Positions 3,583 through 61,920 of a stretch of DNA of 64,000 bases are shown here, in pieces. The stretch lies in NCBI GenBank assembly GCA_004297215.1, contig SCUM01000001.1, positions 742,716 through 806,715 on the forward strand, written 5' to 3'. Both the position numbers and the translations under genes were made by a program. The notes under the pieces are model-generated. The model was not told the DNA's origin. It saw only the letters and a program-made list of their open reading frames with translations, and did not search any database. Source of the stretch: Patescibacteria group bacterium (GTDB lineage: Bacteria > Patescibacteriota > Patescibacteriia > UBA9934 > GWF2-40-263). Position 1 is the first letter of the stretch. Each line of letters opens with the position of its first letter.

Positions 3583-3712
3583 GGACCAAGGTCGGAAGGT
3601 TTTGAAAGGACCAAAGGACACGTGAAAGGATTGAAGGACGAAAAGACGAAGGTTTTAAAGCCTTCGTCTTTCAATCCCTTTGACCTTTCACGTGTCCTTT
3701 GGTCCTTGGTCC
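3583..3712. repeat. 130-bp imperfect palindromic element, probable bidirectional terminator (copy 1)
   Basis: Long inverted repeat GGACCAAGG..GAAAGGACCAAAGGACACGTGAAAGG..GACGAAGGTTTTAAAGCCTTCGTC..CCTTTCACGTGTCCTTTGGTCCTTGGTCC between convergent holA and rpsT. Second copy at 61791-61920. Confidence 0.8.
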
Positions 3713-14400: not shown

Positions 14401-17400
14401 CTGGACGTTCGCGAATGACACCACTGTCGCGCTTTCGGGCGGCGTGAACGGCCTCAACTTCGACTCGAACACCCTTTCCATCGACGCCGCCAACAACCGC
14501 ATCGGCATCGGCACCTCGACGCCATCGCACCTCGTGGACATCAGCGCCGGCACCTCCACCGGCTTCTGGCCGCTGCACATCGCCGCGACGGTCACGGACG
14601 GGTTCGCGGGGCTGCGCGCCGACATCACGAGTTCGGACACGATCGGGAACAACCAGCTGGCCGGCCAGTTCGTCCTCGCCGCCGGCGCCACCGGGGCAGG
14701 GTATTACACGGCCCTGGACGTGGAGAACCTGGCGGCCGGCACCGGGAGCGACCTCAAGCTCGATACGTCGTCGAACGCCTCCCTCGGCAACACCGGCCTC
14801 AGCAGCCTCGCCATCGCGACCACCACGGGCCTCAACGTCGGCTCTTACATGGAGGCCGCCAACGGCGCGACGAGCGTGGGCGGGGTGGGGAAGTCCATCA
14901 CGGCCAAGGCCTCGGGGACCAACATCGGCGTCCTGGGCGTGGGCCGCAACACGAGCGTGACGTCCCCCATCGAGATCGGCGGGTACTTCGGCCTGTTCAA
15001 CTCCACCCCCACCTTCGACGCCTCCTCCGGCCTCATCGCGAGCAACGGGTCGACCACCAACAACATCTTCCTCGCCCGCGACAACAACACGACGGTGTTT
15101 TCCATCGTGGACGGGGGGAGCGTGGGCATCGGCGACGCCACCCCCGACGCCCTGCTCGACGTGGCCGGCAGTTTCCAGTTCGACGGCGACGCGACCTTTG
15201 GCGACGCGGCCACGGACAACGTGGTGTTCACGGCCGACGTGAACAGCAACATCCTCCCCAACACCGATGACACGTACACGCTCGGCGACGCGGACCAGCG
15301 CTGGGCGGATATCTTCCTCGGCCCGGCCTCCATCCATATCGGCACCTCGGCCACGAACGAGGGCGTGATCAGCTACGCGGCCGGAACCTCGCTCGATTTC
15401 GGCACGGATTCGACCACGAACGCCGACATCGCCTTTTTCACCGACGACCTCTACCTCGACAAGTCCACGGGGCGCGTGGGTGTCGGCACCGCGGCGCCCG
15501 GTTACCTCCTCGACGTGAACGGCGCCATCCGCGCCGGCACGCCGGGCACGGATGGCCAGATGCGCGTCTACTCCGAGCAGGGAGCCACCGACTACGAGGT
15601 CGTGTTCGATCCCAACGCTGCGATGACCCAGAACGTGACGTATACCCTCCCAGCCAATGACGGCGACTCCGGCCAGTTCCTCACGAGCGACGGCGCAGGC
15701 GCGCTTTCCTGGACCACCTCGGCCGGCTCCGGCGACATCACGGCCGTCGGTTCAATGACGAGCGGCGACGCGTTCGCGGATTCCTCGGCCGATGACGACT
15801 GGCTCGGTCTCGGCGTGGCCGCCGGACGCATCGAGTTCGACGACCTCGCCACCGACGAGGTGAACGTCCTTGGGGCGCGCGTCGGCGTCGGCACCTCCGC
15901 GCCGGACGCGTTGGTTGACGTGGAAGGGAGCGTGAACGGCGAGGTCGCCACTTATGCCACGAATACGAACGCGGGCACGGCGGCCTTCGCCGCCGTCAGC
16001 CTCGTGAACGACCAAGGCAATTCGTTCCGATCCTCGGTGTACATGACCAGCAGCACGTACGTGGGTTCCGGTGAAGGCGCGAACGCGCTCGTGTTGCAAA
16101 ACGGCGTGACCACGGGGCCGATCCGCTTCATGCAAGGGACCACTTCCCGCATGCTCATCGACGGCTCCGGCGACCTCTCCTGGAGCGGGAACGCGACCTT
16201 CGGCGATACCTCGGGGGACGCGATTACCGTGAATGCCGCCACTTGGACGTTCGCGAACGACACCGCGGTGGCGCTCTCGGGCGGCGAGAACGGCCTCAAT
16301 TTCGACAGCAACACCCTTTCCATCGACGCGACGAACGACCGCGTGGGCATCGGGACCGCGTCCCCGGCCGCGATGTTCCATGCGACCCGGTCGGCTCCGG
16401 CCGCCGGCGCCGAGGCCTGGGCCGAAAACACGAGCGCGACCGGCTATGCCGCCATGCTCATCGTGAATGACGCCGGGTCCGGGAGCCGCAGCGGGTTGCA
16501 ATTCGCGGGTTCGGGCTATGCCGACACCATCGTCGGGAACAACGACCTCGCCCTCACGCAGGCCACGGCCAACGACCTCCATTTCGCCACCAGCAACACG
16601 CGGCGCGTGACGCTCGACGCGTCCGGGAACCTGGGGATCGGCGACGCCACCCCCGACTACCTCCTCGACGTGGCCGGCACTCTCGGCGTGGACGGCAGCG
16701 TCACCCTCGGCGACGCGGTCACCGACAACCTCACCGTGGGCGCGGCCATCCAAGGGACGAGCGCGCTCGTGTTCGACGGCTCCACGGATGACGCTAACGA
16801 GACCACCTTCTCCATCACCAACCCCACGGCTGACAATACGATTACCTTCCAAAACGGCACGGGCACCGTGGCGTTCCTTTCTGACATCCCGGCTTCCGGC
16901 GACATCACGGCCGTCGGCTCCATGACCTCGGGCGACGCCTTCGCCGACGCCACGGCCGACGACGACTGGCTGGGCCTCGGCGCCGCGGCCGGCCGCATCG
17001 AGTTCGATGACCAGGCGACCGACGAGGTGAACATCCTATCGTCCCTCGTCGGCATCGGGACCTCGACCCCGTCGGCCATGCTTTCCGTGGGCGCCAGCTC
17101 GCAATTCCAGGTGGATAGCTCTGGAAACATCACGACCTCCGGCACTTTGGCGGTGAACGGCGGGATCATCACGGCGACCGGTTCGCTCGATATCAACTCC
17201 CTTACGACGACCGCGCTTACGCTCGACTCGGGCACGACCGGCGACGTGAATCTCGGGACAGGCGCAAACGCGAAGGCGGTCTTCGTGGGCAACAGCACCG
17301 GTGCGACGAACCTTACGTTCAATGTCGGCACCGGCGGCATCAACTTCGGCGACAACGCGAATACGAAGACGATCGACATCGGCGGGGTCACCAGCAGCGG

Positions 17401-30203: not shown

Positions 30204-31277
30204 ATGCTCAAAGTCGGCATCGTGGGGCTTCCGAACGTCGGCAAGTCCACCCTGTTCAAGACGCTCACCAAGAAGCAGGTTCCCTGCGAGAATTTCCCGT
30301 TCTGCACGATCGAGCCCAACGTGGGGATCGTGGAAGTTCCCGACGCGCGGCTCGCGGCGCTTGCCAAGGCGTCGAACACGGCGAAGATCATCTCGGCGGC
30401 GATCGAGTTCGTGGATATCGCGGGAATCGTGAAGGGGGCGAGCAAGGGGGAAGGGCTTGGCAACAAGTTCCTCACCAACATCCGCGAGACGGACATGATC
30501 TTGCACGTGGTGCGCGCGTTTGCGGACCCGAACGTCCACCACGTGGACGGGGCCGTGGACCCTAAGCGAGACGTGGAGACGATCGAGACCGAGCTCGCGC
30601 TCGCGGACATCGAGCTGGTCCAGAAGCGCCTCGACGGGGTGCGCGGCAAGATGAAGTCCGGGCGCACCAAGGAGCTTGAGAAAGAGGAGTCGGCGCTCGC
30701 CAAACTGTTTGCCGCGCTCGAGCAGGGGAGGATGGCCAACGCCGTCGAGCTCGACGAAGATGAGGAAAAAGCGGTGAAAGGGCTGCTATTGCTCACGCGC
30801 AAGCCCATCCTCTTTGTCTTGAACGTTGATGAGAAAGCGGCGGCGGATTCGTCCTGGACGAGCCCGCTCGGTCCGGAGCGCCTGTCCATTCCCATCAGCG
30901 TGAAGATCGAGAGCGAGATCATGGAGATGCCGGTCGAGGACCAAAAGGCCTTCCTGACCGAACTCGGATTGTCGATGAGCGGCCTCGACCGCGTGATCGC
31001 CAAGTGCTACTCGATGCTCGGGCTCATCACCTACTTCACGTCAGGGGAGAAAGAGACGCGCGCCTGGACGATCCCCGTGGGGACGAAGGCCCCGCAGGCG
31101 GCCGGCGTGATCCACACCGATTTCGAAAAGAATTTCATCCGAGCCGAGGTCACCGATTGGAAGGATTTCGTCGCGCTCGGCGAAAGCGGCGCGCGCGACG
31201 CGGGAAAACTCCGCATCGAAGGGAAGGACTACGTGATGCGCGACGGGGACACGTGTCATTTCCGGGTGGGGGGATAG
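30204..31277 (+). CDS. ychF: Ribosome-binding ATPase YchF
   Basis: 357 aa. [18 protein letters not shown].., G-motifs, TGS domain C-terminus ..[18 protein letters not shown]. Confidence 0.95.
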
Positions 31278-31294
31278 GCAGGTCGCATAGGCAG

Positions 31295-31370
31295 GAAGGC
31301 CTCAGGCCCCAGGCATGAAGGTTACACATGGCGCTCATGTTTTCCTTAGGCCTTTCCGCCTGAGGCCTTC
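31295..31370. terminator. Imperfect long hairpin between convergent ychF and the methyltransferase gene
   Basis: GAAGGCCTCAGGC ... GCCTGAGGCCTTC arms. The motif CATGAAGGCCTCAGGC recurs at 56050-56070. Confidence 0.5.
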
Positions 31371-32313
31371 ATGCCTTGCGCATCACCACGATCTCCCGCG
31401 CCACCTTTTGCCCCTTGCGTTCGTACAGGAACGTCCGTTCGATCGTGAATCCGATCGGAGCAAGGATGGTGTTCAAGGGGAGGCGCAGCTTCTGGGTGCC
31501 GCGCACGAAGGCCGGGAAGGCGATCGCGGCCCGCGCGCCCGGCTTCATCACGGCATGCACGCCGACGAGCATCTTTGCGTAGGACTGGCCCAAAACGGCC
31601 ATGTTTTTTTGGATCGTCTCAAGCGTTTCGCGGCCGGTCATCGGCGGGCCGAGATACGTTTCACCGGCCACGGCGTCGACGGGATCCTTGAGAATCGCCG
31701 CGAGGTCGGCCGCGTCACAAACGTACACCGACACGCGCGAGGCGCGAGCCTCCGGGAATTCCTTGCGCACCCATTCGAGGTTGCGTCCCGTGTCCGCAGT
31801 CGCCTTTTTCGAGATGTCCGAAGCGATGACCGCCTTGAACCCCATCAGCATCGCCTCCATCGGAACCGTCCCGCTCCCGCAGAACGGATCAAGGAGCACA
31901 AGGCTCGCTACCCCTCTCCTCTCGGAGGAGAGGGCATGGGTGAGGTCCGCGCCCGTGCCCGTGGCGAGGTTCACGAGCGTGCGCGCGAGCTTGGGCGGGA
32001 GCATCCCGCTTTTCGCGTCGCGGCTGGGGCGCCCGAAGTCACGTTTCGACCATGCCTCGAAATCCTGGACCGCCTCGGTGCGCCCGACGAGGATCCCGTC
32101 CTTGGTGGCAACGAGTACGATGTCGCCGGCCTTTGCCTGCGTGGTCACTGCCACGCTCGAGAGCGTGTCGCCCTTCATCGTGACGACACGCACCTTGCGT
32201 CCTTCGGCCTCGAGCGTGCGTTTCACGGTCATCCCGATCTTGCTTGCCTCGCCCTTGAGGTTGCCGAACAGGGGAGCGTTGCCGCCGTCATAGAGCGACA
32301 GGCCAAATGTCAT
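31361..32313 (-). CDS. Putative RNA (guanine-N2) methyltransferase, UPF0020/Trm11-RlmL-like
   Basis: Start MTFGLSLYDGG at 32313. Class I MTase motif I LLDPFCGSGT. The N-terminal region is consistent with a THUMP-associated family. The long ORF extension to 33168 runs through a repeat and is rejected. Confidence 0.7.
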
Positions 32314-32320
32314 TTTTTTC

Positions 32321-32410
32321 CCATCGTCATTGCGAGGAAGGAGCGAAGCGACTGACGAAGCAATCTCGTCGCTCGCGGGGGAACGGGATTGCTTCGCTTC
32401 GCTCGCAATG
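32321..32410. repeat. Palindromic element of the CATTGCGAG / GACGAAGCAATC family
   Basis: TCATTGCGAGGAAGGAGCGAAGCGACTGACGAAGCAATCTCGTCGC...GGGATTGCTTCGCTTCGCTCGCAATGA. Related copy at 49915-50040. Confidence 0.7.
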
Positions 32411-32727
32411 ACGGAACCGGCCTTGACGACTCCAGCCAACCTGTTTATTGCCTCTTTCGGACTCGGACCGGACTCGTCGCACACAAGAACCGTCTCCGAT
32501 GTCGCGACGGCCTTCGCGGACGGGTAAATGGCAAAAAATTCCGCCAATGACAGCGCAGGATTCGAGCCAAGGACGTAGAAGCGCATAAGCGTTTCAAAGT
32601 ATAGCAGATGTGGATAACCGGTGCTTGTGTCGTGGAATAGATGTGCATAGGACGACGGTTTGCTTCGGACAGTCCGAGTTACCCACATGGATTGGTATTT
32701 TTTCGCTAAAATGGCGACCAAAATGCT

Positions 32728-32756
32728 TTGACTGCCCATTCCAAAAAACGTAAAAT
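32728..32756 (+). promoter_or_regulatory. Consensus sigma70 promoter of surface locus 2 (near-leaderless)
   Basis: TTGACT, 17-nt spacer, TAAAAT. ATG at 32767 only about 4-6 nt after the predicted TSS. Shares AAAATGCTTTGAC with the promoter at 6030. Confidence 0.7.
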
Positions 32757-32766
32757 AGCTAAGAAT

Positions 32767-33426
32767 ATGGTCCGAGCCTTCATTTTTGCCGTAGGCGCTT
32801 GTGTTGGAACCCTGTTGCCCGGGATGGTTCTGGCCCAGTCCACCTCCACCAATTACATCCTGTGGGACACCGCGATCAATGCGGGAGGCGGAAGGACTAC
32901 GTCCACGAATTACATCAATTTCAACACGGTGGTGGACGTGGGGAGCGACCGTCTTTCCAGCACCAACTATCGCGCCTACCAGGGGTTCGAAGCGATCACC
33001 GAGGACCCGCGCATCACCATGAGCCTTACCCCCACAACCATCACCCTCTCGCCCAATCCGCTCACCACCGCGTCGGTGAGCACGGGCACCACCACGGCCA
33101 CCGTGAGCACGAACGCGGACTTCGGCTACACGCTCACGGCCACGGAGAACGACGCGTTCAAAAATCAAAGCGCCGATGAGCTCGCGGACGTCTCCGATGG
33201 CGCCGTCACTGCCGGGAGCGAGGAGTACGGCATCGCGGTGAGCGGTTCCGACGCCGCGTTCGGCGACGACCGCAGCGTTTCCGCGACCCCGCGCACGATC
33301 GCGAGCAAAAGCACCTGGGGAGCCGACCGCGCCACCGTCGTCACCGTGAAGGCCGCGATCGCGAGCGTCACGGACTCGGGGGAGTACTCGGGCACGCTCA
33401 CGTTCATCGCCACGGGGAATTATTGA
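32767..33426 (+). CDS. Secreted subunit-like protein (paralog of 6078), C-terminal ...TFIATGNY
   Basis: Start MVRAFIFAVGACVGTLLPGMVLAQS (signal peptide). The ORF-track start at 32728 lies upstream of the promoter. Three S-T-N-Y repeats, DVSDGAVTAGSEEYG, terminal TLTFIATGNY. Confidence 0.75.
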   Translation: MVRAFIFAVGACVGTLLPGMVLAQSTSTNYILWDTAINAGGGRTTSTNYINFNTVVDVGSDRLSSTNYRAYQGFEAITEDPRITMSLTPTTITLSPNPLTTASVSTGTTTATVSTNADFGYTLTATENDAFKNQSADELADVSDGAVTAGSEEYGIAVSGSDAAFGDDRSVSATPRTIASKSTWGADRATVVTVKAAIASVTDSGEYSGTLTFIATGNY

Positions 33427-33428
33427 AT

Positions 33429-33517
33429 AGTGCGTAGTGCGTAGTTGGTAGTACGTAGGAAAGAAAATCTACGCACTACGAACTACGTACTACGAACTAC
33501 GTACTACGCACTACGCA
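33429..33517. repeat. Hairpin built from ACTACGY heptamer arrays (left flank of the four-helix-bundle gene)
   Basis: AGTGCGTAGTGCGTAGTTGGTAGTACGTAGG..loop..CTACGCACTACGAACTACGTACTACGAACTACGTACTACGCACTACGCA. Confidence 0.8.
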
Positions 33518-33532
33518 AACATATGAACAACG

Positions 33533-33888
33533 AAAAAACGGGTTCGTACCAAGACTTGATCGTGTGGCAGAAGGCCATGGATCTTGTGGTCGGTGTTTAT
33601 GAGATTACAAAAGATTTTCCTACAGATGAGCGGTATGGGATCGTGAGTCAGATGAGACGTTCCGCCGTGTCTATCCCGTCGAACATTGCGGAGGGATATA
33701 GGCGAAAAAGCGAGGTGGATTTTCAAAGATTCCTCCGGATCGCCTATGGCTCAGCGTCTGAACTCGAAACACAGCTCCTCATTGCGCAACGGTTACGATA
33801 CGGGCCAGCAAGCTTTGCCCGAACGGATGCTCTCCTGGAAGAAATTCTGAAAATGTTAAACAAGATGACGGAAGGGAAGAGTTCGTAG
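33533..33888 (+). CDS. Four-helix-bundle protein (23S rRNA intervening-sequence protein family)
   Basis: MNNEKTGSYQDLIVWQKAMDLVVGVYEITKDFPTDERYGIVSQMRRSAVSIPSNIAEGYRRKS..FLRIAYGSASELETQLLIAQRL matches the TIGR02436-type family. The annotated upstream start lies inside the hairpin repeat. Confidence 0.8.
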
Positions 33889-33983
33889 TCCGTAGTCCGT
33901 AGTGCGTAGGAAAAACCTACGACTACGAACTACGGTCTAGGAAACCGGTCTACGTACTACGCACTACGTACTACGCACTCCGC
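33882..33983. repeat. Heptamer-array hairpin (right flank of the four-helix-bundle gene)
   Basis: TCGTAGTCCGTAGTCCGTAGTGCGTAGG..CTACGACTACGAACTACGG, followed by further CTACGTACTACGCACTACGTACTACGCAC units. Confidence 0.8.
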
Positions 33984-34100
33984 GCCCCCTAAACCACAAA
34001 GGTCGAGCACAACAGCGTATGGGTCGGGACGGGTGCCGAAGGGTTCGGCGCCGTCGACATCTATCAAGGCCCAGACGCCCATCTAATCCACGAACTTCAT

Positions 34101-35258
34101 ATGAACAAATTCCATTCATTCATCGCGAAAGTGACCATGCTCTCGCTGGTGGTCGCGCTGGTGGCGATCGTCTCCCCGGCGCAGGCGGCCACGATCACCT
34201 CCGCCAAGGACACGATGTCGCGCGTGCAGATCTCGACCCTCTCCAACCACGAGATCCTGTTCACGACCCCGACCGGCGTCGCGAGCGGCGCCACGATCAT
34301 CGTCACGTTCAACACCGACTTCTCGGTCGCGGCCGCGCTCGACTTCACGGATCTCGACCTCTCATCGGACTCGACACCGGATGCCGACTGTAGCGCGGAC
34401 GAAACGGAGGCGACCCTCGCGGCCGCCCCGTCGGGCGCCACGGTGGGCGCCGTGCGCACGTCCGGCACCGTCATCACCTTCACCAACGGCACGACCGTGA
34501 TCGCGGCCGGGTCGGAAGTGTGCATCCAGATCGGCACGAACGCCACGAACCAGACGACCGGCGTCCGACAGGTCACCAACGCCACGACGGACAGCTCGGC
34601 GAGCGCCAAGACCGTCGCTTTGAGCGGCACCTTCGGCGACTCCGGCACCATCGCGTTGGGCATCGTGGACGACGACACGGTAGCCATCTCGGCCACGGTC
34701 ACGTCCGCGCTCACCTTCGACCTCGATACGGTCACCACGGACACATGCAGCACCACCGAGACTGCGGCCGCCTACGCGGTCGCGCTCGGCACTATCACCA
34801 CCACCGACACCCGCGTGTCCGGCGGGACCGACTCGGTGGAATCCATCTGCGTAGACCTCAACACCAACGCCTCCGGGGGCGCCGTGATCACGGTCGTCTC
34901 GGCCAACGGGTCGAGCGGGCTCGTGAGCACCTCGGTGCCGGGCGACACCATCCCGAGCGCCGGAGCCACCATGGCCGACGGCACGGCCAACTACGGCATC
35001 TGCGTGGTGTCGGAAACGTCTTCCGCCGGCACGTTCGACGACGTGGCGCCGTTTGACAACGCCTCGTGCGCGGCCAACACCGAGACCAACGTGGTCGGCG
35101 GCCTCACCACCTCGGCGCAGACCATCCTCGACACCAACACCGACCCGATCGCCACCGGCCGCGCGCAGATCGCCGTGAACGCCGCCATCAGCGGAATCAC
35201 CCCGGCGCACAGCGACTACGCGGACACCCTCACGTTCATCGCGACGGGGACGTTCTAA
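34101..35258 (+). CDS. Secreted subunit-like protein 2 (homologous to the N-domain of the 7865 protein), C-terminal ...LTFIATGTF
   Basis: 385 aa. Signal peptide. ATITSAKDTM..NHEILFTTPTGV..ADCSADE..IGTNATNQ..SGTFGDSGTIALGI. Thr/Ser-rich. The terminal strand resembles those of 6078 and 32767. Confidence 0.75.
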   Translation: MNKFHSFIAKVTMLSLVVALVAIVSPAQAATITSAKDTMSRVQISTLSNHEILFTTPTGVASGATIIVTFNTDFSVAAALDFTDLDLSSDSTPDADCSADETEATLAAAPSGATVGAVRTSGTVITFTNGTTVIAAGSEVCIQIGTNATNQTTGVRQVTNATTDSSASAKTVALSGTFGDSGTIALGIVDDDTVAISATVTSALTFDLDTVTTDTCSTTETAAAYAVALGTITTTDTRVSGGTDSVESICVDLNTNASGGAVITVVSANGSSGLVSTSVPGDTIPSAGATMADGTANYGICVVSETSSAGTFDDVAPFDNASCAANTETNVVGGLTTSAQTILDTNTDPIATGRAQIAVNAAISGITPAHSDYADTLTFIATGTF

Positions 35259-35279
35259 CTCATCCGCAACGACATACAT

Positions 35280-36236
35280 ATGTGGAGGAAACTGTCATTT
35301 GCGGCCATGGTGGCGACCCTGCTCGCCCCGATCATGAACGTGCTTCCGGCCGCGGCGCTCACCGTGAGCCCGGTGGTGATCGAGCATGAGGCCGACCCCG
35401 GCGACGAGATCGTGGGGACCATCAAGCTGCACAACGAAGGGGCCCAGACGGAGACGTATTACCCGACCGTCCAGGACTTCGTGGGTTCCGACGAGTCCGG
35501 TACGCCCCAGTTCATCGGAACGAGCCCCGACCGCTCGCTCGTGGAGTGGGTGTCGTTCGGCCGCAGCTCCATCACCATCGATCCGGGCGACGGGGAGCTC
35601 GTGGTGTACACGCTCAAGGTGCCGAAGGATGCCGCCCCGGGCGGGTACTTCGGCGGCCTGCTGTTCTCGACCTCGCCGGCCAACGCCGCGTTCGGCGTGG
35701 GCACCGTGGGCGTCACGGGCCCGCTCCTGCTTGTGCGCGTGTCCGGCAACGTGGTCGAACGGGCGAGCGTCGCCTCGTTCGCGTCGAGCCAGGACTCGGG
35801 CACCTCGCTCCCGGTGGACTTCAAGCTGCGCGTGCAAAACGAAGGCACGGTGCACGTGAAGCCCACGGGCGTGATCCGCATCACCAACCTGTTCGGCGGC
35901 GTATCCGCCGTCATTCCGGTGAACGCGGGCGGCGGCAACGTGCTGCCTGGCGGTGCGCGCGTCTACTCCGAGAGCTGGGTCAAGTCCGAGCTTCCGGACA
36001 ACGCGAGCGAGCTCATGAAGGAATGGAAGAACTTCGGGTTCGGCCCGTACACCGCCACCCTTATCCTGAACTACGGGGAAGGGAAGCAGGTGATGAGCGC
36101 CTCCGACTCCTTCTGGGTGATGCCGTGGATGCTCATGGTGCTGTTCGTGATCCTCATCGCGGTCGCATTGCTCCTGCTCGCCCAGTACAACAAGTGGGTG
36201 ATCGCAAGGGCGATGATGAGCCAGAAGAAACGGTAG
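35280..36236 (+). CDS. Membrane-anchored PapD-like/DUF916-like beta-sandwich protein (paralog of 6985)
   Basis: 318 aa. Signal peptide, LTVSPVVIEHEADPGDEIVGTIKLHNEGAQTETYYPTVQDF, C-terminal SDSFWVMPW + TM helix + basic tail (QKKR). Confidence 0.75.
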   Translation: MWRKLSFAAMVATLLAPIMNVLPAAALTVSPVVIEHEADPGDEIVGTIKLHNEGAQTETYYPTVQDFVGSDESGTPQFIGTSPDRSLVEWVSFGRSSITIDPGDGELVVYTLKVPKDAAPGGYFGGLLFSTSPANAAFGVGTVGVTGPLLLVRVSGNVVERASVASFASSQDSGTSLPVDFKLRVQNEGTVHVKPTGVIRITNLFGGVSAVIPVNAGGGNVLPGGARVYSESWVKSELPDNASELMKEWKNFGFGPYTATLILNYGEGKQVMSASDSFWVMPWMLMVLFVILIAVALLLLAQYNKWVIARAMMSQKKR

Positions 36237-36257
36237 CTCCTCAGACCCCACCATGCC

Positions 36258-36334
36258 TCCCCTTTCCAAGGGGAGGGTAGCGGAAGCGAGCTATCTCCCC
36301 CTTGGAAAGGGGGAGCATGAGGGGGTCTGCGGCG
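36258..36334. repeat. Cluster of palindromic repeats upstream of giant gene 3
   Basis: CCTCCCCTTTCCAAGGGGAGGG, then CTCCCCCTTGGAAAGGGGGAG + CATGAGGGGGTCTGCGG (parts 1 and 3 of the composite element). Confidence 0.8.
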
Positions 36335-36341
36335 TGGGAGC

Positions 36342-39300
36342 GTGAGTTCCCACGTCCGCCCCGTGTCACGAGCGTCTCGTGGCATGAGGCGGGTGGATTC
36401 CACCCGAACTTTGCACGCCCCCATGCTTGTCGTGCAGCCAGACAAATCCCTCATCCGAAGAGTAAGCGCGAGCGAGCCGTTCGCGCTCGTTGTGGTTTTC
36501 CTCATGATGATTTCCGGGTTCAGCGTGTGGATGCTGCTGTCGCGCGCGCCCGGGGCGGTCGCGACGCTCGACACGCCGATGCTCATCACCTATCAGGGGA
36601 AGCTCACCAACGCGAGCCGCATCACGGTGCCGGACTCGGCGCTCAACATGAAGTTCGCGATCTACACCTCGAGCTCCGGCGCCTCCGGCTGCGTGTGGAG
36701 CGCGGGCGACGACCCGGGCGACGGCGCGGACACTACCTTCTCGCAATCAAGCGACTGTCCGAGCCATGTCCCGTCGACCGCGATTTCCGTGACGCCCAGC
36801 GAAGGGGTGGTCACGGTGATCCTCGGCGCCTCCCCGCAAAACGCCATCCCCGATGCGCTGTTCGACGACAACTCCGCCCTGTACCTCGGCGTCACCGTGG
36901 GGGCTGACAGCGAAATGACTCCGAGGATCCGCCTCACCGCCACGCCCTACGCCTTCCAGGCCGGCGACGCGGACCTGCTCGACGGCCTCGATTCCACGGC
37001 GTTCGCCACCACGAGCACCGCGTTCGTGAACAACGGCAATTCCTTCGCCGCCGCCGGGGTGATCGGCACCAACGACGCGAACTCGCTCTCGTTTGAGACG
37101 AACAACGTTACCTATCTCACCATCGCCTCCGGCGGCGGCTTCACGCTTCCCGTGGACACCGACTGGACGCTCACGGGCGGCACGAACGGGTTGAGCCTCG
37201 ACGGCACCACCTTCTCCGTGGACGCCGCCAACAACCGCATCGGCATCGGCACCGCGGCCCCGAGCCAGACCCTCACGGTGGTCGGCACCGGCGACGTGTC
37301 CGGCCACGTGGCCATCGGCGACGACGCCGCGATCAACGACGCGTCGCTCCTCTATGGCGCATCGACCATCACGAACGTCCTTACCGTCTCCGAGGAGATG
37401 ACGGACGGCGCCTCGGACTACGTGGACGGCATCACCAACCACATCCTGTACAACCCGTCCACCGACGCCTCAACCACGTGGGTCGACGGCATGGACACGG
37501 TCGTGGAGACGGCCGCGGCAAACGCGCAGGACATCGACGTGATCGATGCCGGATATTTCGGGACCACCCATAACGGCACGGGCGACATCGTGGGCTGGCT
37601 CAACGGCGTCTCGGGGGTCGTCAGCACGACGGCGACGAGCGGGAGTTCTATTTCGAACAACGCCGGGTATTTCGCGGTCACCGCGATCGACCCCCGCGCC
37701 ACCGGTACCGAGGACAACTACGGCTTGTGGTCGGCCGTGAGCCGCACCGGCGCCACGGGCGGCACCATCAACACCTACGGCGTGTACGTGCAAAGCAACG
37801 GCATGGACGCTGCCGGCGCCGGTACCTCCACCCTCTACGGCCTCTATATAGAGAGCATGACAGGGGCCGACACCAACTACGCCATCTACTCCGCCGGCGG
37901 CCAGAGCTACCACGCGGGGAACTTCGGGATCGGCGACGCCTCTCCCGCCTCCCTCCTCACCGTGGGCTCGGGCGACCTGTTCCAGGTGACCTCCGCGGGG
38001 AGGATCATCACGACCGTGACCCCCACGGCCGACTCGGGGACCACCAACAACGCGGCGTTCGTGATGCTCACCACCCCGGCGGACACCACCGGCACGAACG
38101 TGCACAACGCCCTGCGCGTGGACGGGAACGTGGGCAACGCCACCGGAGGCACCAACACCGTCAATCTCCTCGAGTTCGACGCTCTGACCGGCGACGCCCA
38201 AGTGACCCTGCGCGGCATCGACATCGGCGCGCTCACCGGCACCGCCGCCACGGAGGACGCCATCCTGGTCGGAAGCGGTTGGGACTGCACGTTCAAGGTG
38301 GGCTCCACCTGCGTGATCGATGGCTCCGGCACGCTCGGTTCCAGCGGCAACGCCTTCGTGAACGGGGGCAACTCCTTCGGCGCCAGCGCCATCCTCGGGA
38401 CGAACGACGCCAACTCCCTTTCGTTTGAGACCAACAACACCACCTACCTCACCATCGCCTCCGGCGGAGGATTCACCCTCCCCGTGGACACCGACTGGAC
38501 GCTCACGGGCGGGGAGAACGGGTTCTCCATCGACGGCACCACCTTCTCGGTGGATGGCTCGGCCAACCGCGTGGGCATCGGCGACGCCACCCCCGACGCG
38601 CTGCTCGACGTGGGCGGGGACGCGTTCATCGACAACGACCTCGTGGTGGGTGCCGCGACCTCGACCACCGAGACGCTCGCGAACGCCGGGTTCAGCTTGA
38701 GCAACGACGACCTATTCGTCTCTGACTCCATCGGCGCCGAGGGCAACGTCTACACCGACGGCTCCTTCATCGCGGGTGCCACCCTCACGCTCGCCGACTC
38801 CGGCATCACCGAGTCGGGTGCCTTCACCTTCACCTCGCAGCTCGCCGCGGGCGGCACTACTTCTTCCGCCTTCAACCTTGTCTCGAGCAACGACCTGGGC
38901 GCATCCGACGAGGTGCTCCAGATCGGCGACTCGGCCGCCACCTTCATGACCGTGCTCGGGAACGGCAGCGTGGGGATCGGGACGGTGAGTCCGTCAGTGA
39001 TTTTAGATATCGCGAAAGTGGGTTCGGGAAGTACCGCGGCCCAAGTGACCATTTCCGGGTATGCGAATGACGCTTCCAGCGGGGCATACATGAACTGGCA
39101 AAAATCACGCGGAACGTCCGTCGGTTCTTTGGTCACGACCGATAGCGGAGATTATCTCGGGGTGATGGGATGGGCGGGCGTTACTTCTTCCAACACGAGC
39201 AGTTATGGCGCGAGGATCCTCGTGCAGCAAGATGCCGCGGCATCAGCGACGCAAGTACCCGGCGCCTTCATCATCAGGACGAGCGATGCCAGCGCCGAGT

Positions 39301-42300
39301 CTGAAAGATTGCGCATCACGAGTTCCGGCAACGTCGGCATCGGCGATACCACCCCCGCCTCGCTGTTCACCGTGGGCGACGGAGATGATTTCCAGGTATC
39401 CTCGACCGGTAACCTCACCTCTCCGGCCGACACCACATGGACGATTGGTGGCGGCGTGAACGGCCTCAACTTCGATTCGGACACCCTTTCGATCGACGCT
39501 ACGAACAATTTCGTGGGAATCGGCACGAGCACCCCGGACTATCTCCTCCAGGCCGAGGCCAGCTCCGCGTCCGTTCAAGCCGCCGTGGTCACGAACACGA
39601 ACACGGCCGGCGCAGGGGTGGTCATGGCGCAGGCGGGAAACGTGACGGCGCGCTATGCGGCGTACGGGACGACGGCGGCGATTAACAACTTCGCGTCCGG
39701 CACGGCGGCCTTCTTCGGAAGCGGCGCCGTCACCTCCGTCCAGATGGTCACGCCGGACGTGGCCGCCCCGTTGGCGTTCGGATACAACGATTTCGTCTCC
39801 ACGAGCCGCGAATTCCTCCGCCTGACGGACGGGACGGCCGGCGCCGTGTTCAACGAGGACAGCCTCGACCGGGATTTCCGCGCCGAGACCGACGGGAACG
39901 TCAACGGCATCTTCCTCGACGCTTCCGCCGAGACCATCGACCTGGTGGGCGGCTCGGGCTCCACGGGCTGCTCCATCAGCTCGGCGGGCGCCCTGGTGTG
40001 CACCGCAGGGGTAGGAGGATGGACCGACGGGGGGACCGACGTCACCCTCACCACCTCCACCGACAACGTGGGCATCGGCGGTGCGTCGCTCGGCAAGCTC
40101 TCCGTGGACGGGGATACCGACGAGATCCAGCTCCTGGTGCAGGGAAACTCCAGCCAGACGGCCAACTACATGACGGTGGAGACGAGCGCCGGCACCGACC
40201 TGTTCCAGATTGACACTTCCGGGAACGTCATCCTCACCAACGACCTTGGCGTGGGCGCCGCCGCCTCCTCCGAGACGCTCGCGAACACGGGTTTCTCGCC
40301 GAATGGCGACGACCTGTTCGTGGCGGACTCGATCGGCGCGGAAGGCAACGTCTACACCGACGGCTCCTTCATCGCCGGCGCCACCCTCACGCTCGCGGAC
40401 TCCGGCATCACCGAATCCGGCGCCTTCATTTTCACCTCCCAGCTCGCTTCCGGCGGCACCACCTCCTCCGCCTTCAACCTCGTCTCGAGCAATGACCTGG
40501 GTGCCGCCGACGAGCTCCTGCAGATCGGGGACTCGGCCGGGACGTTCATGACGTTCCTTGGGAACGGCAACGTCGGGATCGGGACCGTAAACCCCTCGGC
40601 CCCGCTCACGGTGGTCGGGGGAGCGGACGTCAATCTCGCCGCGGACGACAACTTCGTCATCGACGGGAGCACCAACCAGCGCACCATCACGCTCGGAGCC
40701 ATGCGCTTCTTGCACACGCCGGCCATCCAGGGGACGCGCGCCATCAACCTGGTGGTGGACGCCAACAACCAGTCCGACACCTCCGGCATCGTGGTGGATT
40801 ACGCCGCCACCAACTTCGACAGCGACCAGAACGGCACGGCGCTCAAGCTCTCGGTGGATTCCACGAGCGCGACCGGCGGGGAAGTGCGGGCGATCGACGT
40901 CACGAAGACGGCCGGCGGCACCCTCGACGTGTACGCGGTGCAAGCCGGGGTGGGCGTGACCCCCCTGCGCCAGGTCTCGGGCACGTTCGGGAACGTGGAC
41001 ACGGCGCTCATCGAGGCCGGCGGATTCACGGCCGTCACGTCGAGCTTCAACTCCACCGGCACCGACGTGCAGATGTTCGTGGCCAACGGCGACCGCGTGT
41101 ACGTGGGCGCGGACACCACCTTCGGCGCCGTCTCCTTCGTGCTCGCCACCGTCGCCTCCGGCGCCGGAGTGAAGCCAACCTTCGAGTTTTCCACGGGCGC
41201 CGGATGGACGAGCTTCGGTCCCAACGACGGGACCAACGGGATGCGCACCAACGGGAGCATCAGTTGGGACGCCGCCGACCTCGCGACCTGGGCCACCCAG
41301 TCCGTGAACGCCACCACCAAGTACTGGATCCGCATCACGCGCACGCAGGCCGCGCTTACCACGCCGCCCACCGAGGACATCGTGCAATACGCGGCCGCGA
41401 CCAATTACACCTGGGACGTGAACGGCGACCTCGCGATCCGCGACCTCGCGGTCAACGGCGGCGACCTCACCACGAGCACTTCCACCTTCAACCTGGCCGC
41501 GTCGGTCACGACGCTCGCGATGGCCGGCGGCTCCGGCTCCACGGGCTGCACGATTGACTCCTCGGGGAACCTGGCGTGTTCCGGCACGGTGTCAGGGAGC
41601 GGAGCCGTCGGGTTCGTGAACGGGGGCAACTCCTTCGGCGCCAGCGCCATCCTCGGGACGAACGACGCGAACTCGCTCTCGTTTGAGACCAATAACACCA
41701 CCTACCTCACCATCGCCTCCGGCGGCGGGTTCACGCTTCCCGTGGACACCGACTGGACCCTCACGGGCGGCACGAACGGGTTGAGCTTCGACGGCACCAC
41801 CTTCTCCGTGGACGCCACCAACAACCGCATCGGCATCGGCACGGCGGCGCCGACGACGGAGCTTGATATTGTCGGTTCGGGGACCGGCTACAACTTCAAC
41901 GCGATCCGCAGCACGAACGGCAACATCGGCTATTTCTCCCAGAACGACACGGCCGGCACCGCCGCGACATCGCGCATGTGGTTGATTGCTGACGGGGTTT
42001 CGGGCAACAGCGTGCAAGGGAATCTCTGGGCGCTCTCCTCCTCCTATACGGATGCCTTCTGGGGAAGCTACGCGGCGGGCAAGGTCTTGCTTGCGGCTGC
42101 TGGTGAGGCGAGTCGGAAGGACCTGTTGATCGCGGCGGTCGGTTCCGGGACTGGCGGCAAGATCGCATTCCATGTCGGTGGATTGAACGAGGCGCCGTTA
42201 GCCGCCAACGAACGGGCGCAAATCGGCGCGACTGAGTTCGTCGTCAACGACAGCTCCAATAATTACGACTTCCGCGTGGAGGGCGACACCAACGCCAACC

Positions 42301-45300
42301 TCCTGTTCCTCGACGCATCCGCCGACCGCGTTGGCATCGGAGATGCCACCCCCGACCATTTCGTGGACATCGAGGCTGGTTCGCTCGCGAGCGCCGTGAA
42401 CGCGCTTTCCGTGACCGGCACGCTCTCTTCGACGGCCGCGGCCCAGACGGGCGTCTCGGTAGACATCACGGGAGCCGGTAGCGACTCGAATCTCCATGCC
42501 GGCTTGGCAGTCAATCTGGGAGCCGGATATACGGGGGCCGGAGCCTCGGCGGCGATGTATTACACGAACTATTCCGCGGGTACGGCAACCACGCCTGTCG
42601 GGAACGGGAACGGGAATTACGGCGTGTCAGGTTTCGCCTTGGGAACGACGACCGGGACGAACGTCAGCGTGCTCGGTTCCGCAGGCTACGGCGACGTCAA
42701 CTACGGCGTCATGGGGAAGGCCCAGGTCGCCAAGACGAGCGCGAAGAACGTCGCGGTCGCCGGCGTGGCGAATGCCGCCGGCGGTTCCGGCATGACGCTC
42801 CTCGGCGGGTATTTCGGCATCAATTCGACCGCCGGAGACCCGACGCTCGCAAGCGCCGCCCTCATCGCGGACAACGGCGACGTCTCCGCCCCCATCTTCC
42901 TCGCCCGCGACAACGGCACGGTCGTGCTCACGGTCGCCGATGGCGGCTCCGTCGGCATCGGCGACAGCACGCCTGCCTCATTGTTCACCGTGGGCGACGG
43001 GGACGACTTCCAGGTGGGCTCCGACGGCGATCTCGACAGCATCAAGAGCGTCGCGTATTCCTGGCCCTCGGCAAACGCCTCGGGCGTGCTCACCAACAAC
43101 GGCTCCGGCGTCCTTTCCTGGTCCTCGGCCGGCTCCGGCGACATCACGGCGGTCGGCTCCATGACCTCGGGCGACGCCTTTGCCGACGCCACGGCCGACG
43201 ACGACTGGCTGGGCCTCGGCGCCGCGGCCGGCCGCATCGAGTTCGATGACGTGACGAACGACGAGGTGAACGTGCTCGACGCGTACCTCGGCGTCGGCAC
43301 GTCCACTCCGGCCGGGATCTTCCACGTGTCGGCGGCCGACCCGCGCACGCGCGTCACGCACACCTCCACCACCGGGTACAGCGTGTTCGACCTCTACGAG
43401 AACGCCACGGCCCAAGGCTCCCTCACCACCTACGGCTCCGCGGTGGGCGGGGCGATGGCGAACGATTTCGTGATCTCGGGCCGCGGCACCTCGGACCTCG
43501 TGTTCGCGAGCGCCGACGATACCGAGCGCATGCGCATCGCCGCCGGCGGCAACGTGGGCGTGGGGGACGCCACTCCGGACGGGTTCTTCTCGGTGGGCAC
43601 CACTTCCCAGCTCCAGGTCACGAGCGCCGGCAACCTTTCCACTTCCGGCACCGTCACCTCCACGAGTTCCTCGGCCTCCGCGCTCGTGGTCGACACCACC
43701 ACGCTCGTGGTGGATGCGAGCGCCAACCGCGTGGGCGTGGGTACCGCCTCGCCCGCCGCCGACCTGCACGTGTCGGCGGCCGATACGCGCATGCGCGTCA
43801 CCCACACGTCGACCACCGGGTACGGACAGCTCGATTTCTACGAGAGCGGCACCGTCCAGGGCGACATCGTGGCGTATGGCTCCGGCGTGGGCGGGGCGCT
43901 TGAGAACGATTTCGTGATCTCGAGCCGCGGCACCTCGGACCTGGTCCTTGCGAGCAGCGCGGACACCGAGCGCCTGCGCATCACCGCCGCCGGCGCGTTC
44001 TCGCTCCCCGCGGACACCGACTGGACCCTCACGGGCGGGGTGAACGGCCTATCCTTCGACGGCACCACCTTCTCGGTGGACGCCACCAACAACCGCATCG
44101 GCATCGGCGACGCCAGCCCGTCCGCGCTGCTCACCGTGGGCGACGGCGACAAGTTCAAGGTCAACGCCGAGGGCGACATCACCTCCGCGTTCACGACCCT
44201 CGACGGTTCGACGACGGCGAACGGCGCGGGTTCCAACTCGACCACGCTCATCCTTACGAGCGCCACGAACTTCGATGTCGGGAATTACGTCCAGGTGGCC
44301 GCGACCGCCTGCGCCGCCAATCCTTGTTTTGCCAAGATCACGGCCATCGTGACCAATACGTTGACCGTCAGCCCTGCCATCTCCTGGAGCGACCTCGACG
44401 TCGTGACCGAGGTCCACGTCCCCGAGATCGGCGGCCTCGACCTCACCCAGGCGCTCGCCAACCGCTACGGCCGCGGCTACTTCATCGACGGCATCGTGGC
44501 CGGCAACGGCTCCACCTACATCACCGACGGCTCGATCGAGAGCGTCGGCGCGCTTCGCATCAACGCCTCCGGCAACCAGGCCGTGACCTTCGGCACCGGC
44601 ACGGTCACGGTCAACGGCCCGCTCGTGACCGCGGCCGGCAACGACCTCAACGTGGACTCCGGCACCCTGTTTGTCGACTCTACCAACAACCGCGTGGGCA
44701 TCGGCACGGCCACCCCCGGCTACCTGCTCGACGTTGCCGGCGCCATGCGCGTGGGCGTGGCCGGCACCGACGGCCAGATCCGCCTGTACTCCGAGCAGGG
44801 GGCCACGGATTACGAGGTGGTGATCAACCCCAACGCCGCCATGACCCAGAACGTCACCTACACCCTCCCGGCCGACGACGGCACTTCAAGCCAGGTGCTC
44901 ACCACCGACGGCTCCGGCGGCTTGAGCTGGGCCACCGCCGGCGGCTCGGGTGCCAACGTCACACTCTCGAACCTCACCACCGTTGCCCTCAACGCCGACC
45001 TGCTTCCGTCCGCGTCGCCGTCCACCTCCTCGAGCAGCAGGACGACCACGGTGGCGGAAACGACCACCTCCACGGGGACGTATTCGGACATGGCGGTTCC
45101 CGCGGATGGGTTGCCGGTCTTAAGTCATACGGACGCATCCGGTTACCTGCGGGTCAGCAAGTGCAGCGACGCCAACTGCTCTTCCGGTTCGATTACCAAC
45201 ACTATCGTGGATTCCAGTTCAACGTTCCAATACACTTCCGTCGCCATTTCCGCCGACGGGTATCCGGTGATCAGCTATTACGACAGCACGAACCTGGATC

Positions 45301-53584: not shown

Positions 53585-54094
53585 ATGAAGTTTTACGAAT
53601 TCCTCTACATCCTCCCGAGCAAGTACGCCGAGAACGAGATCGACCCCGTCGTGAAGGCCGTGACCGAGATGACACAGAAGGCTGGCGCAGAGGTCGTGAA
53701 GACCACGGTGCTCGGCCGCCTCAAGCTGGCGTATGCGATCGAAGGGTCCCGGTACGGCACGTACGTGCTCACCTATTTCAACGCCGAGCCTGCCGCCTTG
53801 CAGGCGCTCGATCGCGCCTTGTCCCTTTCCGACGAAGTGCTGCGCCACACCATCCTTTCGGCCAAGGCCGGGGATGAGTCGAAGAAGGTCGAGCTCTCCG
53901 CCTACGTCGCGCCTCTCTCCGAGGAGGCCCGCGAGGAGCGCGCTCCCGACCGCCGCCCTGCGCCGCCGCGCGCCGCCGCCCCGGTCTCCGCCGTCGCAGC
54001 CGCGGTGAAGCCCGCCGAGCCCGCCATGTCCATCGAAGAACTCGACAAGAAGCTCGACGAGATCCTAGATTCGGATATTTCAAAAGGAGTTTAA
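53585..54094 (+). CDS. rpsF: 30S ribosomal protein S6 with Ala/Pro-rich C-terminal extension
   Basis: MKFYEFLYILPSKYAENEIDPVVKAV...YGTYVLTYFNAEP. The S6 fold occupies the first ~100 aa, followed by a low-complexity tail. Confidence 0.9.
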   Translation: MKFYEFLYILPSKYAENEIDPVVKAVTEMTQKAGAEVVKTTVLGRLKLAYAIEGSRYGTYVLTYFNAEPAALQALDRALSLSDEVLRHTILSAKAGDESKKVELSAYVAPLSEEAREERAPDRRPAPPRAAAPVSAVAAAVKPAEPAMSIEELDKKLDEILDSDISKGV

Positions 54095-54096
54095 CA

Positions 54097-54177
54097 TGCT
54101 ACGAACCAACGAACGGCTACGAAACTACTAAAATACCTTTTGTTCGTAGTTTCGTAGCCCGTTCGAAGGTTCGTAAC
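54097..54177. repeat. CTACGAA-heptamer hairpin between rpsF and ssb
   Basis: GCTACGAACCAACGAACGGCTACGAAACTAC..loop..GTTCGTAGTTTCGTAGCCCGTTCGAAGGTTCGTAAC. Confidence 0.75.
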
Positions 54178-54184
54178 ACCACCT

Positions 54185-54685: not shown

Positions 54686-54686
54686 A

Positions 54687-54755
54687 GTGCGTAGGTGGTA
54701 GTACGTAGTGCGTAGGATTTATTTTCTACGCACTACTGACTACGCACTACGTACT
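54687..54755. repeat. ACTACGY-heptamer hairpin between ssb and rpsR
   Basis: AGTGCGTAGGTGGTAGTACGTAGTGCGTAGG..loop..TACGCACTACTGACTACGCACTACGTACT, nearly identical to the arm at 33429. Confidence 0.8.
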
Positions 54756-61702: not shown

Positions 61703-61790
61703 AAGGGGGAGGGGGTAGGGGGTAGGTGGTAGTGGGTAGGGAACGGCTAGTAGCCTAGCAGACGGGTAGGGGCGCGCAAGCGGAAAAAAG

Positions 61791-61920
61791 GACCAAGGCC
61801 GAAAGGCTTTGAAAGGACCAAAGACGACGTGAAAGGATTAAAGGATGTAAAAATAAAGGCTTTTAAAGCCTTCGTCTTTTTCCTTTTAATCTTTCACGTC
61901 TCCGTTGGTCCTTGGCCCTT
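61791..61920. repeat. 130-bp palindromic element (copy 2), terminator downstream of the rodZ-like gene
   Basis: GGACCAAGGCCGAAAGGCTTTGAAAGGACCAAAGACGACGTGAAAGGATT...GCTTTTAAAGCCTTCGTCTTT...CTTTCACGTCTCCGTTGGTCCTTGGCCC. About 80% identical to 3583-3712. Confidence 0.8.

Follow-up and report, generated by a model that had tools for sequence, protein, structure and literature searches.

A four-helix-bundle gene between inverted heptamer arrays in a pilus operon of a Patescibacteria bacterium: probably one copy of a widespread cassette

In the genome of a Patescibacteria group bacterium (assembly GCA_004297215.1, contig SCUM01000001.1), a small gene for a four-helix-bundle (4HB) protein lies in the spacer between two protein-coding genes of a pilus operon, and has homologues among the open reading frames (ORFs) inside the intervening sequences (IVSs) of 23S rRNA genes. 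The gene is bracketed on both sides by long arrays of a seven-nucleotide repeat. What kind of element is this, and do the gene and the arrays belong together? We address these questions in the 64,000 nt of the contig from position 742,716 to 806,715, which we refer to as the window and whose own coordinates are used below. Our answer, to which we give a probability of roughly 0.6, is that window positions 33427-34001 are one copy of a widespread cassette, gained and lost over time, in which a PF05635 gene lies between inverted arrays of a heptamer specific to that cassette. Across the loci described below, the 4HB gene and the inverted arrays around it make up one unit, conserved and polar, which sits in spacers between cistrons and which close relatives have gained or lost.

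The family of the protein is clear. A sequence-only reading of the window had called a four-helix-bundle gene here, and the call is borne out by a match to PF05635 (23S_rRNA_IVP) that covers model positions 1-106 of 106 with E 1e-39 and 135.4 bits, against a curated cut-off of 33.8, and by a TIGR02436 score of 128.6 bits, against a cut-off of 24. The RxxxSxxxNxxE motif described for the PF05635 / TIGR02436 family (PMC3936711) is present as RRSAVSIPSNIAEG in a protein of the expected size, about 120 aa, and an NCBI entry with the identical sequence (P0001, 121 aa) is named 'four helix bundle protein [Patescibacteria group bacterium]'. Among solved structures the protein matches 2GSC (XCC0516) with E 2.2e-25 and 2RLD with E 1e-4. 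The window protein is related to XCC0516, which is a pentamer, and homology suggests a pentameric state for the window protein as well. Compared with its relatives, the gene gives a dN of 0.2-0.3 with dS saturated, that is, a dN/dS of about 0.1, and the protein is, judging from these substitution rates, under purifying selection. Thousands of copies of the family, also called S23p or simply four helix bundle, exist and its structure has been solved, but to our knowledge it has no known role.

On both sides of the gene lie hairpins of about 30 bp made of CGTAGTN/ACTACGN heptamers. We denote by F an array on the strand containing TAG, and by R its complement. A 13-mer of two heptamer units, ACTACGYACTACG, has 18 matches in the window with at most one mismatch, compared with 0.05 expected. 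The sequence-only reading had described these flanks as inverted arrays of ACTACG(T/C); the arrays are as it described them, except that any base occurs at the seventh position. The cassette has a GC content of 48.7%, versus 64.7% for the window.

In order to see whether gene and arrays come and go together, it is most useful to compare the locus with its closest relatives. A metagenome contig, L081, carries an operon with matching gene order, in which the PamT-like protein encoded next to the cassette is 88% identical to that of the window and the flanks are 84-90% identical at the nucleotide level. Its counterpart of the cassette is a site of 60 nt with an unrelated GC-rich hairpin, and no 4HB gene occurs anywhere in its 10 kb. 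A second relative, L082, whose YchF protein is 86% identical, carries the closest homologue of the 4HB gene (75% identical), flanked by TAGTNCG/CTACGNA arrays as in the window, in the layout F-gene-R; this copy, however, is placed elsewhere, directly after ychF. The convergent junction between ychF and a methyltransferase gene accordingly holds a complete 4HB cassette in L082 (1013-1470), nearly no spacer in L081 (4672-4700), and a hairpin of about 90 nt with GGCAGGN-like units in the window (31289-31376). In a more distant relative, L083, whose PamT-like protein is 54% identical, a 69%-identical 4HB gene occupies the same site as in the window, flanked by GGTAGNN arrays. Presence is thus sporadic among close relatives, as it is for IVSs, with L081 empty and L082 carrying the cassette at another place. 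On these alignments, window 33427-34001 is an insertion or deletion polymorphism between relatives.

Two further observations concern the same pair of operons. In the hairpin at the empty site of L081 (6707-6750), the outer stem, CGGATGCG...GCATCCG, resembles one heptamer pair, TAGTGCG...GCACTCCG, at about 5/7 positions when it is compared with window 33428-33440 and 33976-33985, a likeness that may be chance or a remnant. Where the 318-aa gene is followed by the giant gene, a hairpin with 43-nt arms (36239-36332) occupies the spacer in the window, while L081 has a solo CGTAGTN direct array (8996-9034) followed by a small hairpin, the two together spanning 8996-9060; here, too, intergenic hairpins differ by exchange between near-identical operons.

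The association between gene and arrays is not peculiar to these relatives. We took for a survey the 80 genomic loci whose homologues are 46-71% identical to the window protein, these being its nearest genomic relatives; they come from CPR (candidate phyla radiation) groups, Gammaproteobacteria, Bacteroidota, Planctomycetota, Chloroflexota, Acidobacteriota and others. The bracket of each gene was scored as the best ungapped inverted repeat between the 160-180 nt upstream and the 160-180 nt downstream, with a threshold of at least 12. A repeat reaching this threshold spans the gene in 54 of 78 loci (77 homologue loci and the window; an earlier run on the first 75 loci gave 51/75), compared with 0 of 68-70 segments displaced by 1 kb and 3.6% of mismatched flank pairs. 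Period 7 alone is enriched in the arms: no arrays of period 5, 6, 9 or 10 occur, and few of period 8. Similarly, lag-7 arrays occur in 49% of the intergenic gaps adjoining the gene but in only 12% of the other gaps of the same loci, the figure for arrays of lag 6 or 8 being 4-6%. Among viral contigs of IMG/VR, the bracket is found at 6 of 11 homologues.

The survey also shows how the unit is built. The heptamer varies by locus (TAGCTGG, TAGTGGT, GTGAATG, CAGTGGA and others), whereas the polarity is fixed: of 41 informative loci, 39 have the TAG/CAG-rich strand on the upstream side of the gene. Typically the arrays extend from the upstream stop codon, or from a few bases off it, to just before the downstream start codon, as between guaB and guaA in Gallionella and between accB and accC in Xanthomonas. 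Fifty loci have the plain F-gene-R layout, and a full hairpin on both sides is found in just 2 of 78, the window and L049. Where one genome contains two paralogues a few kb apart (45-56% identical), their heptamers differ, which implies that the heptamer belongs to the cassette and not to the host. Selection of the arrays for stop codons in all three frames was also considered as a cause; it is not general, since only 18 of 53 upstream arms supply such stops.

Having established the bracket as a property of the family, we turn to its form in the window (Table 1). F1, one of whose units is an odd TTGGTAG, starts 2 nt past the stop codon that ends the PamT-like gene; R1 ends 5 nt before the 4HB start codon; and F2 overlaps the final codons of the 4HB gene together with its TAG stop codon. 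The last, degenerate unit of R2b, CACTCCG, aligns to host sequence of L081. The two local hairpins, H1 (F1/R1) and H2 (F2/R2b), have predicted energies of -53.6 kcal/mol (z -9.6) and -49.5 kcal/mol (z -5.3), respectively. According to the sequence-only reading, the arms could instead pair across the gene, the arm starting at 33429 with the arm at 33916. Such pairing is possible, with a different partner: the arm at 33429 pairs best with 33950-33979 (F1 with R2b, 90% complementary, -48.5 kcal/mol) and at only -26.7 kcal/mol with 33916, while the inner arms, R1 and F2, pair over the gene at -47.1 kcal/mol. The arms are thus terminal inverted repeats able to form a long stem enclosing the ORF, as in an IVS. 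The nested across-gene fold, in which R2b is the partner of F1, is feasible at -206.2 kcal/mol, but it is about 6 kcal/mol worse than the minimum-energy fold of two local hairpins (-212.5), in which R2b is the partner of F2.

Table 1. Coordinates of the cassette, its parts and other heptamer features of the window
Feature	Position	Strand	Description
Whole insert, compared with the empty site in L081	33427..34001	+	575 nt versus 60 nt
F1, left arm of upstream hairpin H1	33428..33458	+	(TAGTNCG) x4.4, TAGTGCG-type
H1 loop	33459..33468	+	A-rich, between F1 and R1
R1, right arm of H1	33469..33517	+	(CTACGNA) x7
4HB gene	33523..33888	+	121 aa; PF05635 / TIGR02436; first ATG 33523
F2, left arm of downstream hairpin H2	33880..33909	+	(AGTNCGT) x4.3
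R2a, short inner right arm	33917..33935	+	CTACGNC-type, about 2.7 units; alternative partner of F2
R2b, outer right arm	33950..33983	+	(CTACGNA) x4.7
Diverged hairpin	54093..54178	+	CTACGAA / TTCGTAG units; between rpsF and ssb; -42.4 kcal/mol, z -9.7
Solo hairpin, cassette heptamer family	54686..54755	+	F-loop-R; between ssb and rpsR; no 4HB gene; -42 kcal/mol, z -8.2
Solo direct array	61704..61745	+	GGGGGTA/GGTGGTA, the type flanking the 4HB gene of L083

A preference for local hairpins raises the question of whether the flanks have anything to do with the gene at all. They could be generic inter-cistron elements (terminators, stabilisers or processing sites), with the 4HB gene between two of them by accident. 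The solo hairpin of the window and the solo direct array of L081, both of the cassette heptamer family, would fit this idea, as would the hairpin at the empty site of L081 and the presence in 64 kb of some ten long hairpins between genes, which belong to several sequence families; yet an accident of this kind would have to recur across phyla, with locus-specific heptamers and a fixed polarity, and would have to account for arrays that are four times commoner in gene-adjoining gaps than in the other gaps of the same loci and for the same heptamer around the closest homologue, in L082, at another site. Intrinsic terminators in particular, which the sequence-only reading had named as the alternative to its own proposal, are rejected, since no U-tract follows either hairpin (the sequences 3' of them are AAACAUAUG and CGCGCCCCCUAA) and neither H1 nor H2 coincides with a site called as terminator-like. 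Overall, we consider it unlikely that the flanks are generic elements.

The known element that the cassette most resembles is the ORF-bearing 23S IVS, exemplified by the helix-45 IVS of Coxiella burnetii with its S23p ORF and by those of Leptospira. In both, a PF05635 ORF, homologous between the two, is enclosed by a terminal stem of about 28-30 bp, its start codon is closely preceded by tandem heptamers, and presence among relatives is sporadic. In Coxiella, the 28-bp terminal stem is cut by RNase III, and two or three GACAGAT heptamers, whose copy number differs among strains, lie at the 5' cut site, immediately upstream of the homologous ORF (PMC4990558). Insertions in CPR rRNA genes also contain 23S_rRNA_IVP (PF05635) ORFs (PMC11270868). 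The differences are equally plain. The window copy has a complete hairpin in each flank and lies in a spacer between protein-coding cistrons (32728-33426 and 34101-35258), not in helix 9, 25 or 45 of a 23S gene; there is no rRNA in the window. Its protein is clearly held by purifying selection; of the Coxiella ORF, by contrast, decay is reported. RNase III excision, known for Coxiella and other IVSs (PMC4990558), would extend to the window copy by analogy.

These comparisons bear on the sequence-only reading in different ways. Its central proposal, an IVS-type cassette in a protein-coding operon, agrees with the 60-nt empty site of L081, with the same heptamers elsewhere in L082 and with the heptamers of the Coxiella IVS. 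It had also held that the family is normally encoded inside 23S rRNA, and this fails among the nearest genomic relatives, none of which (0/80) lies in a 23S gene, no 23S rRNA motif being found at any of these loci; as far as such a survey can tell, most family members lie outside rRNA. Nor does anything in our analysis show an rRNA gene as the source of the window copy. What is new at this locus is the spacer location and the double hairpin, the IVS-type cassette itself being already known.

Since the protein family is distantly homologous to the accessory protein Avd of diversity-generating retroelements (DGRs), and since DGRs are common in CPR bacteria, one might ask whether the gene is an Avd accessory gene aimed at the surface and pilus proteins encoded close by. 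There are indeed weak matches of the Avd type (PF22296 at 23 bits, NF033474 at 19.4 bits and PHROG 3206 with E 5e-7), but the first two are far under their cut-offs of 40 and 80 bits, and the TIGR02436 and PF05635 scores are far over theirs. Of the five flanking genes compared with Pfam (30204-36236), none is a reverse transcriptase, and there is no pair of template and variable repeats in 26-42 kb, where the only direct repeats are protein-domain repeats of the giant gene. Taken together, these results effectively refute a DGR. The homology also bears on function: Avd is a pentameric barrel that clasps an RNA stem-loop, each of its five protomers making contact with the same stem-loop in the ribonucleoprotein of the DGR (bioRxiv 10.1101/2023.10.23.563531).

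The mechanism that we propose for the cassette draws on these two precedents. The module would equal the ORF-bearing type of 23S IVS, set here in the spacer of a CPR pilus (Pam-like) operon and transcribed together with that operon. The window copy is a rare variant in architecture: most copies are F-gene-R, but here the gene has an entire F-loop-R hairpin both before and after it. The heptamer stems of about 30 bp, whether formed locally or across the gene, would be double-stranded RNA and, by analogy with Coxiella, a predicted substrate of RNase III, whose cut would sever the foreign segment from the host transcript, ligation being unnecessary. Severing without ligation would explain why the cassette is tolerated in exactly two types of place, the loops of rRNA helices and the spacers between cistrons. 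The 4HB protein is predicted, from its homology with DGR Avd, to be a pentameric binder of RNA hairpins, and the pentamer would most likely bind its own periodic stem, for self-regulation or for protection. We infer, finally, that the cassette moves.

Several points weigh against this account and should be set beside it. Both the RNase III processing and the protein binding are proposed by analogy. At the level of RNA, one would hope to see an excess of G:U among the mismatches between arms, and in the sense strand there is none (26 G:U, 43 A:C, 74 other), although the test is weakened by its reliance on an ungapped alignment of repeats, whose register is ambiguous; the RNA-level stem is accordingly a prediction. 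As regards movement, the empty site of L081 fits either loss of the cassette in L081 or its gain in the window, no recombinase was found, and the boundaries with L081 show neither a target-site duplication nor a clean junction of insertion. Indeed, the host hairpin is replaced by the cassette, not simply interrupted. An insertion sequence or a MITE (miniature inverted-repeat transposable element) would share the inverted repeats, but there is no duplication at the L081 junction and no transposase. Composition does not settle the matter: the gene is lower in GC than its flanks in 82 of 83 loci (L001-L085), by 7.6 points on average, and it tracks the GC of its host (r = 0.91), so that composition alone neither dates the event nor proves recent transfer, and we dropped low GC as decisive proof of such transfer. 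Lastly, heptamers of the cassette type occur without the gene, in window 54686-54755 and in L081 8996-9034, so that the hairpins could have a host role independent of the 4HB gene.

Gene-less arrays also invite comparison with the systems of repetitive extragenic palindromes and their associated transposases (REP/RAYT, with REPINs), in which one small gene has, on its two sides, inverted copies of a short repeat whose other copies are scattered between genes in the form of hairpins. By analogy, the 4HB protein would be a trans factor that recognises, maintains or disperses its cognate arrays on DNA or single-stranded DNA, and the solo arrays would be its non-autonomous progeny. The repeat pattern is of this kind, with the gene flanked by inverted copies of its repeat (33428-33983) and the solo hairpin at 54686-54755. 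Elsewhere in the survey, arrays more than 200 nt from the gene share the heptamer flanking it in 25 of 38 cases, compared with 3.8% in a cross-locus null; paralogues have different heptamers; and solo arrays lie at differing sites in the window and in L081. The protein is another matter. A RAYT is an HUH Y1 transposase, whereas the 4HB protein is a 120-aa helical bundle without a known nuclease or recombinase fold, which matches only PF05635 and bAvd models and none of those for anti-phage defence or transposases. Moreover, the repeats are tandem heptamers, not a single palindrome; mobility here is putative; and slippage and recombination alone could spread arrays. We therefore regard a trans-acting, REP/RAYT-like factor as improbable.

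The same comparison can be made in cultured organisms. In Xanthomonas campestris the orthologue is XCC0516 (PDB 2GSC, TIGR02436), which resembles the window protein in family (E 2e-25), in its placement within a conserved operon (accB-4HB-accC there, pilin-4HB-pilin in the window) and in its inverted heptamer bracket, with four GGGAATC units upstream and a complementary array downstream. It differs in the heptamer (GGGAATC instead of CGTAGTN) and in the layout (F-gene-R instead of a double hairpin). GGGAATC is repeated throughout the Xanthomonas genome and is reported to have about 186 occurrences, about 70 convergent pairs and no known function (PMC4692102); that XCC0516 is flanked by this very repeat is a further point in favour of a REP/RAYT-like factor. 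More generally, the heptamer repeats of bacteria (Xanthomonas GGGAATC, the arrays of cyanobacteria, TAACTGA of Beggiatoaceae) resemble those described here in being intergenic, of period 7 and species-specific, and they occur singly or as convergent inverted pairs (PMC4692102, PMC4679880), to which the solo arrays at 54686 and 61704 of the window are alike. These two papers make no link to PF05635, whereas the window gene is flanked by its genome's own heptamer; apart from the note on Coxiella (PMC4990558), we found no literature on a link between the family and heptamers in the library searched.

Plasmids of cyanobacteria provide similar cases. In a plasmid collection, 42 records have a homologue, nearly all of them from the heptamer-rich Nostocales, which is in favour of a REP/RAYT-like factor. 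A 4HB gene on a Calothrix plasmid is bracketed by GGGTGTA, and one on a Nostoc punctiforme plasmid has five TCAGGAG units upstream and a weak complementary array downstream. On plasmid pANA02 of Anabaena sp. 90 (NC_019429.1 43892-45030, L102), the 4HB gene is flanked by GTGACAG/CTGTCAC arrays, with cas6 on one side and cas4 on the other. The 4HB family is given as cas-associated in two CRISPR surveys; the Anabaena case (cas6-4HB-cas4) suggests a caution, namely that the published CRISPR-cas 'associations' of the family may be insertions of the cassette into cas operons and not a sign of Cas function.

The double hairpin itself could be explained in the manner of an integron. If the hairpin were an attC-type site, a circle carrying the gene and one hairpin might have integrated at a solo hairpin by a single crossover, and the F-loop-R-gene-F-loop-R layout is exactly what such a crossover predicts; recombination of hairpin with hairpin would then leave a solo hairpin like that at 54686-54755. 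The layout is rare, however (2/78 loci), and the common F-gene-R form does not fit. The arms are plain heptamer arrays flanking a single cassette, without the structured attC consensus, and no integrase, attI or cassette array was met, although no whole-window integrase search was made. An integron-like origin is thus very unlikely. For the heptamer cassette that we favour, we keep two leads from it: the double-hairpin layout may have arisen when a circle with the gene and a hairpin recombined, by a single crossover, with a solo hairpin, and recombination between the direct repeats of the double-hairpin form may yield solo hairpins such as 54686-54755.

For completeness, we describe the surroundings of the cassette and the other repeats of the window. 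The neighbours of the 4HB gene, on the same strand, encode a PamT-like CPR pilus protein upstream (32728-33426, with a weak match to NF058579), a 385-aa pilin-like protein, a 318-aa protein and a surface protein of 4299 aa. The gene for the last contains about 11 tandem units of 153 nt (45206-47025), that is, 51-aa protein repeats ending ...LKVLKCGNAACSSGNTTTT, and has at its 3' end a 15-nt repeat rich in proline and glutamate (48992-49219). Arrays of GGCAGTG/GGCAGTT (about 4.3 units, 30 nt) lie in frame within coding sequence at 19058-19087 and 48378-48407, in the paralogous giant surface-protein ORFs 11489-19933 and 36342-49241, where they encode ...GSGQLAVGSG... at an equivalent position of the C-terminal domain conserved in both paralogues. 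A period-8 array, AGTGGTTG, is found at 19657-19690.

Two palindromes complete the list. One is near-perfect, about 100 nt long with arms of 33-51 nt, and present in two intergenic copies (3606-3707 and 61813-61913), AAGGACCAAAGGAC...GTCCTTTGGTCCTT; its arms are loosely heptamer-periodic, and it represents a second dispersed hairpin family of the genome. The other, of 85 nt (32328-32412, GTCATTGCGAGGAAGGAGCGAAGCGA...TCGCTTCGCTCGCAATGAC), lies immediately upstream of the minus-strand methyltransferase gene and inflates the call of that ORF to 599 aa; it resembles a palindrome that recurs in many CPR and other metagenome assemblies.

What would the cassette mean for the family? Whether in CPR bacteria, Proteobacteria or cyanobacteria, the gene travels with its inverted arrays in one fixed polarity, and dispersed arrays of the same type lie nearby. 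This suggests a family-wide link between gene and heptamer, tying rRNA IVSs to heptamer repeats, that is undescribed as far as we have found. A bolder idea, which we put forward tentatively and think somewhat doubtful, is that PF05635 pentamers bind heptamer stems in a sequence-specific manner, each cassette seeding or maintaining the solo arrays and hairpins of its genome. If this were true, bacterial heptamer repeats and ORF-bearing rRNA IVSs would be two manifestations of a single system of protein and repeat, which would resemble REP/RAYT but work via RNA or single-stranded DNA hairpins. The repeats covered would be those of Xanthomonas (GGGAATC), perhaps those of Beggiatoa (TAACTGA), and the cyanobacterial heptamer arrays of the STRR type. 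The question can be tested in cultured organisms, at accB-4HB-accC in Xanthomonas and on the plasmids of Nostoc and Anabaena. Three puzzles, the function of S23p, the presence of ORFs in rRNA IVSs and the purpose of species-specific heptamer repeats, may then turn out to be one.

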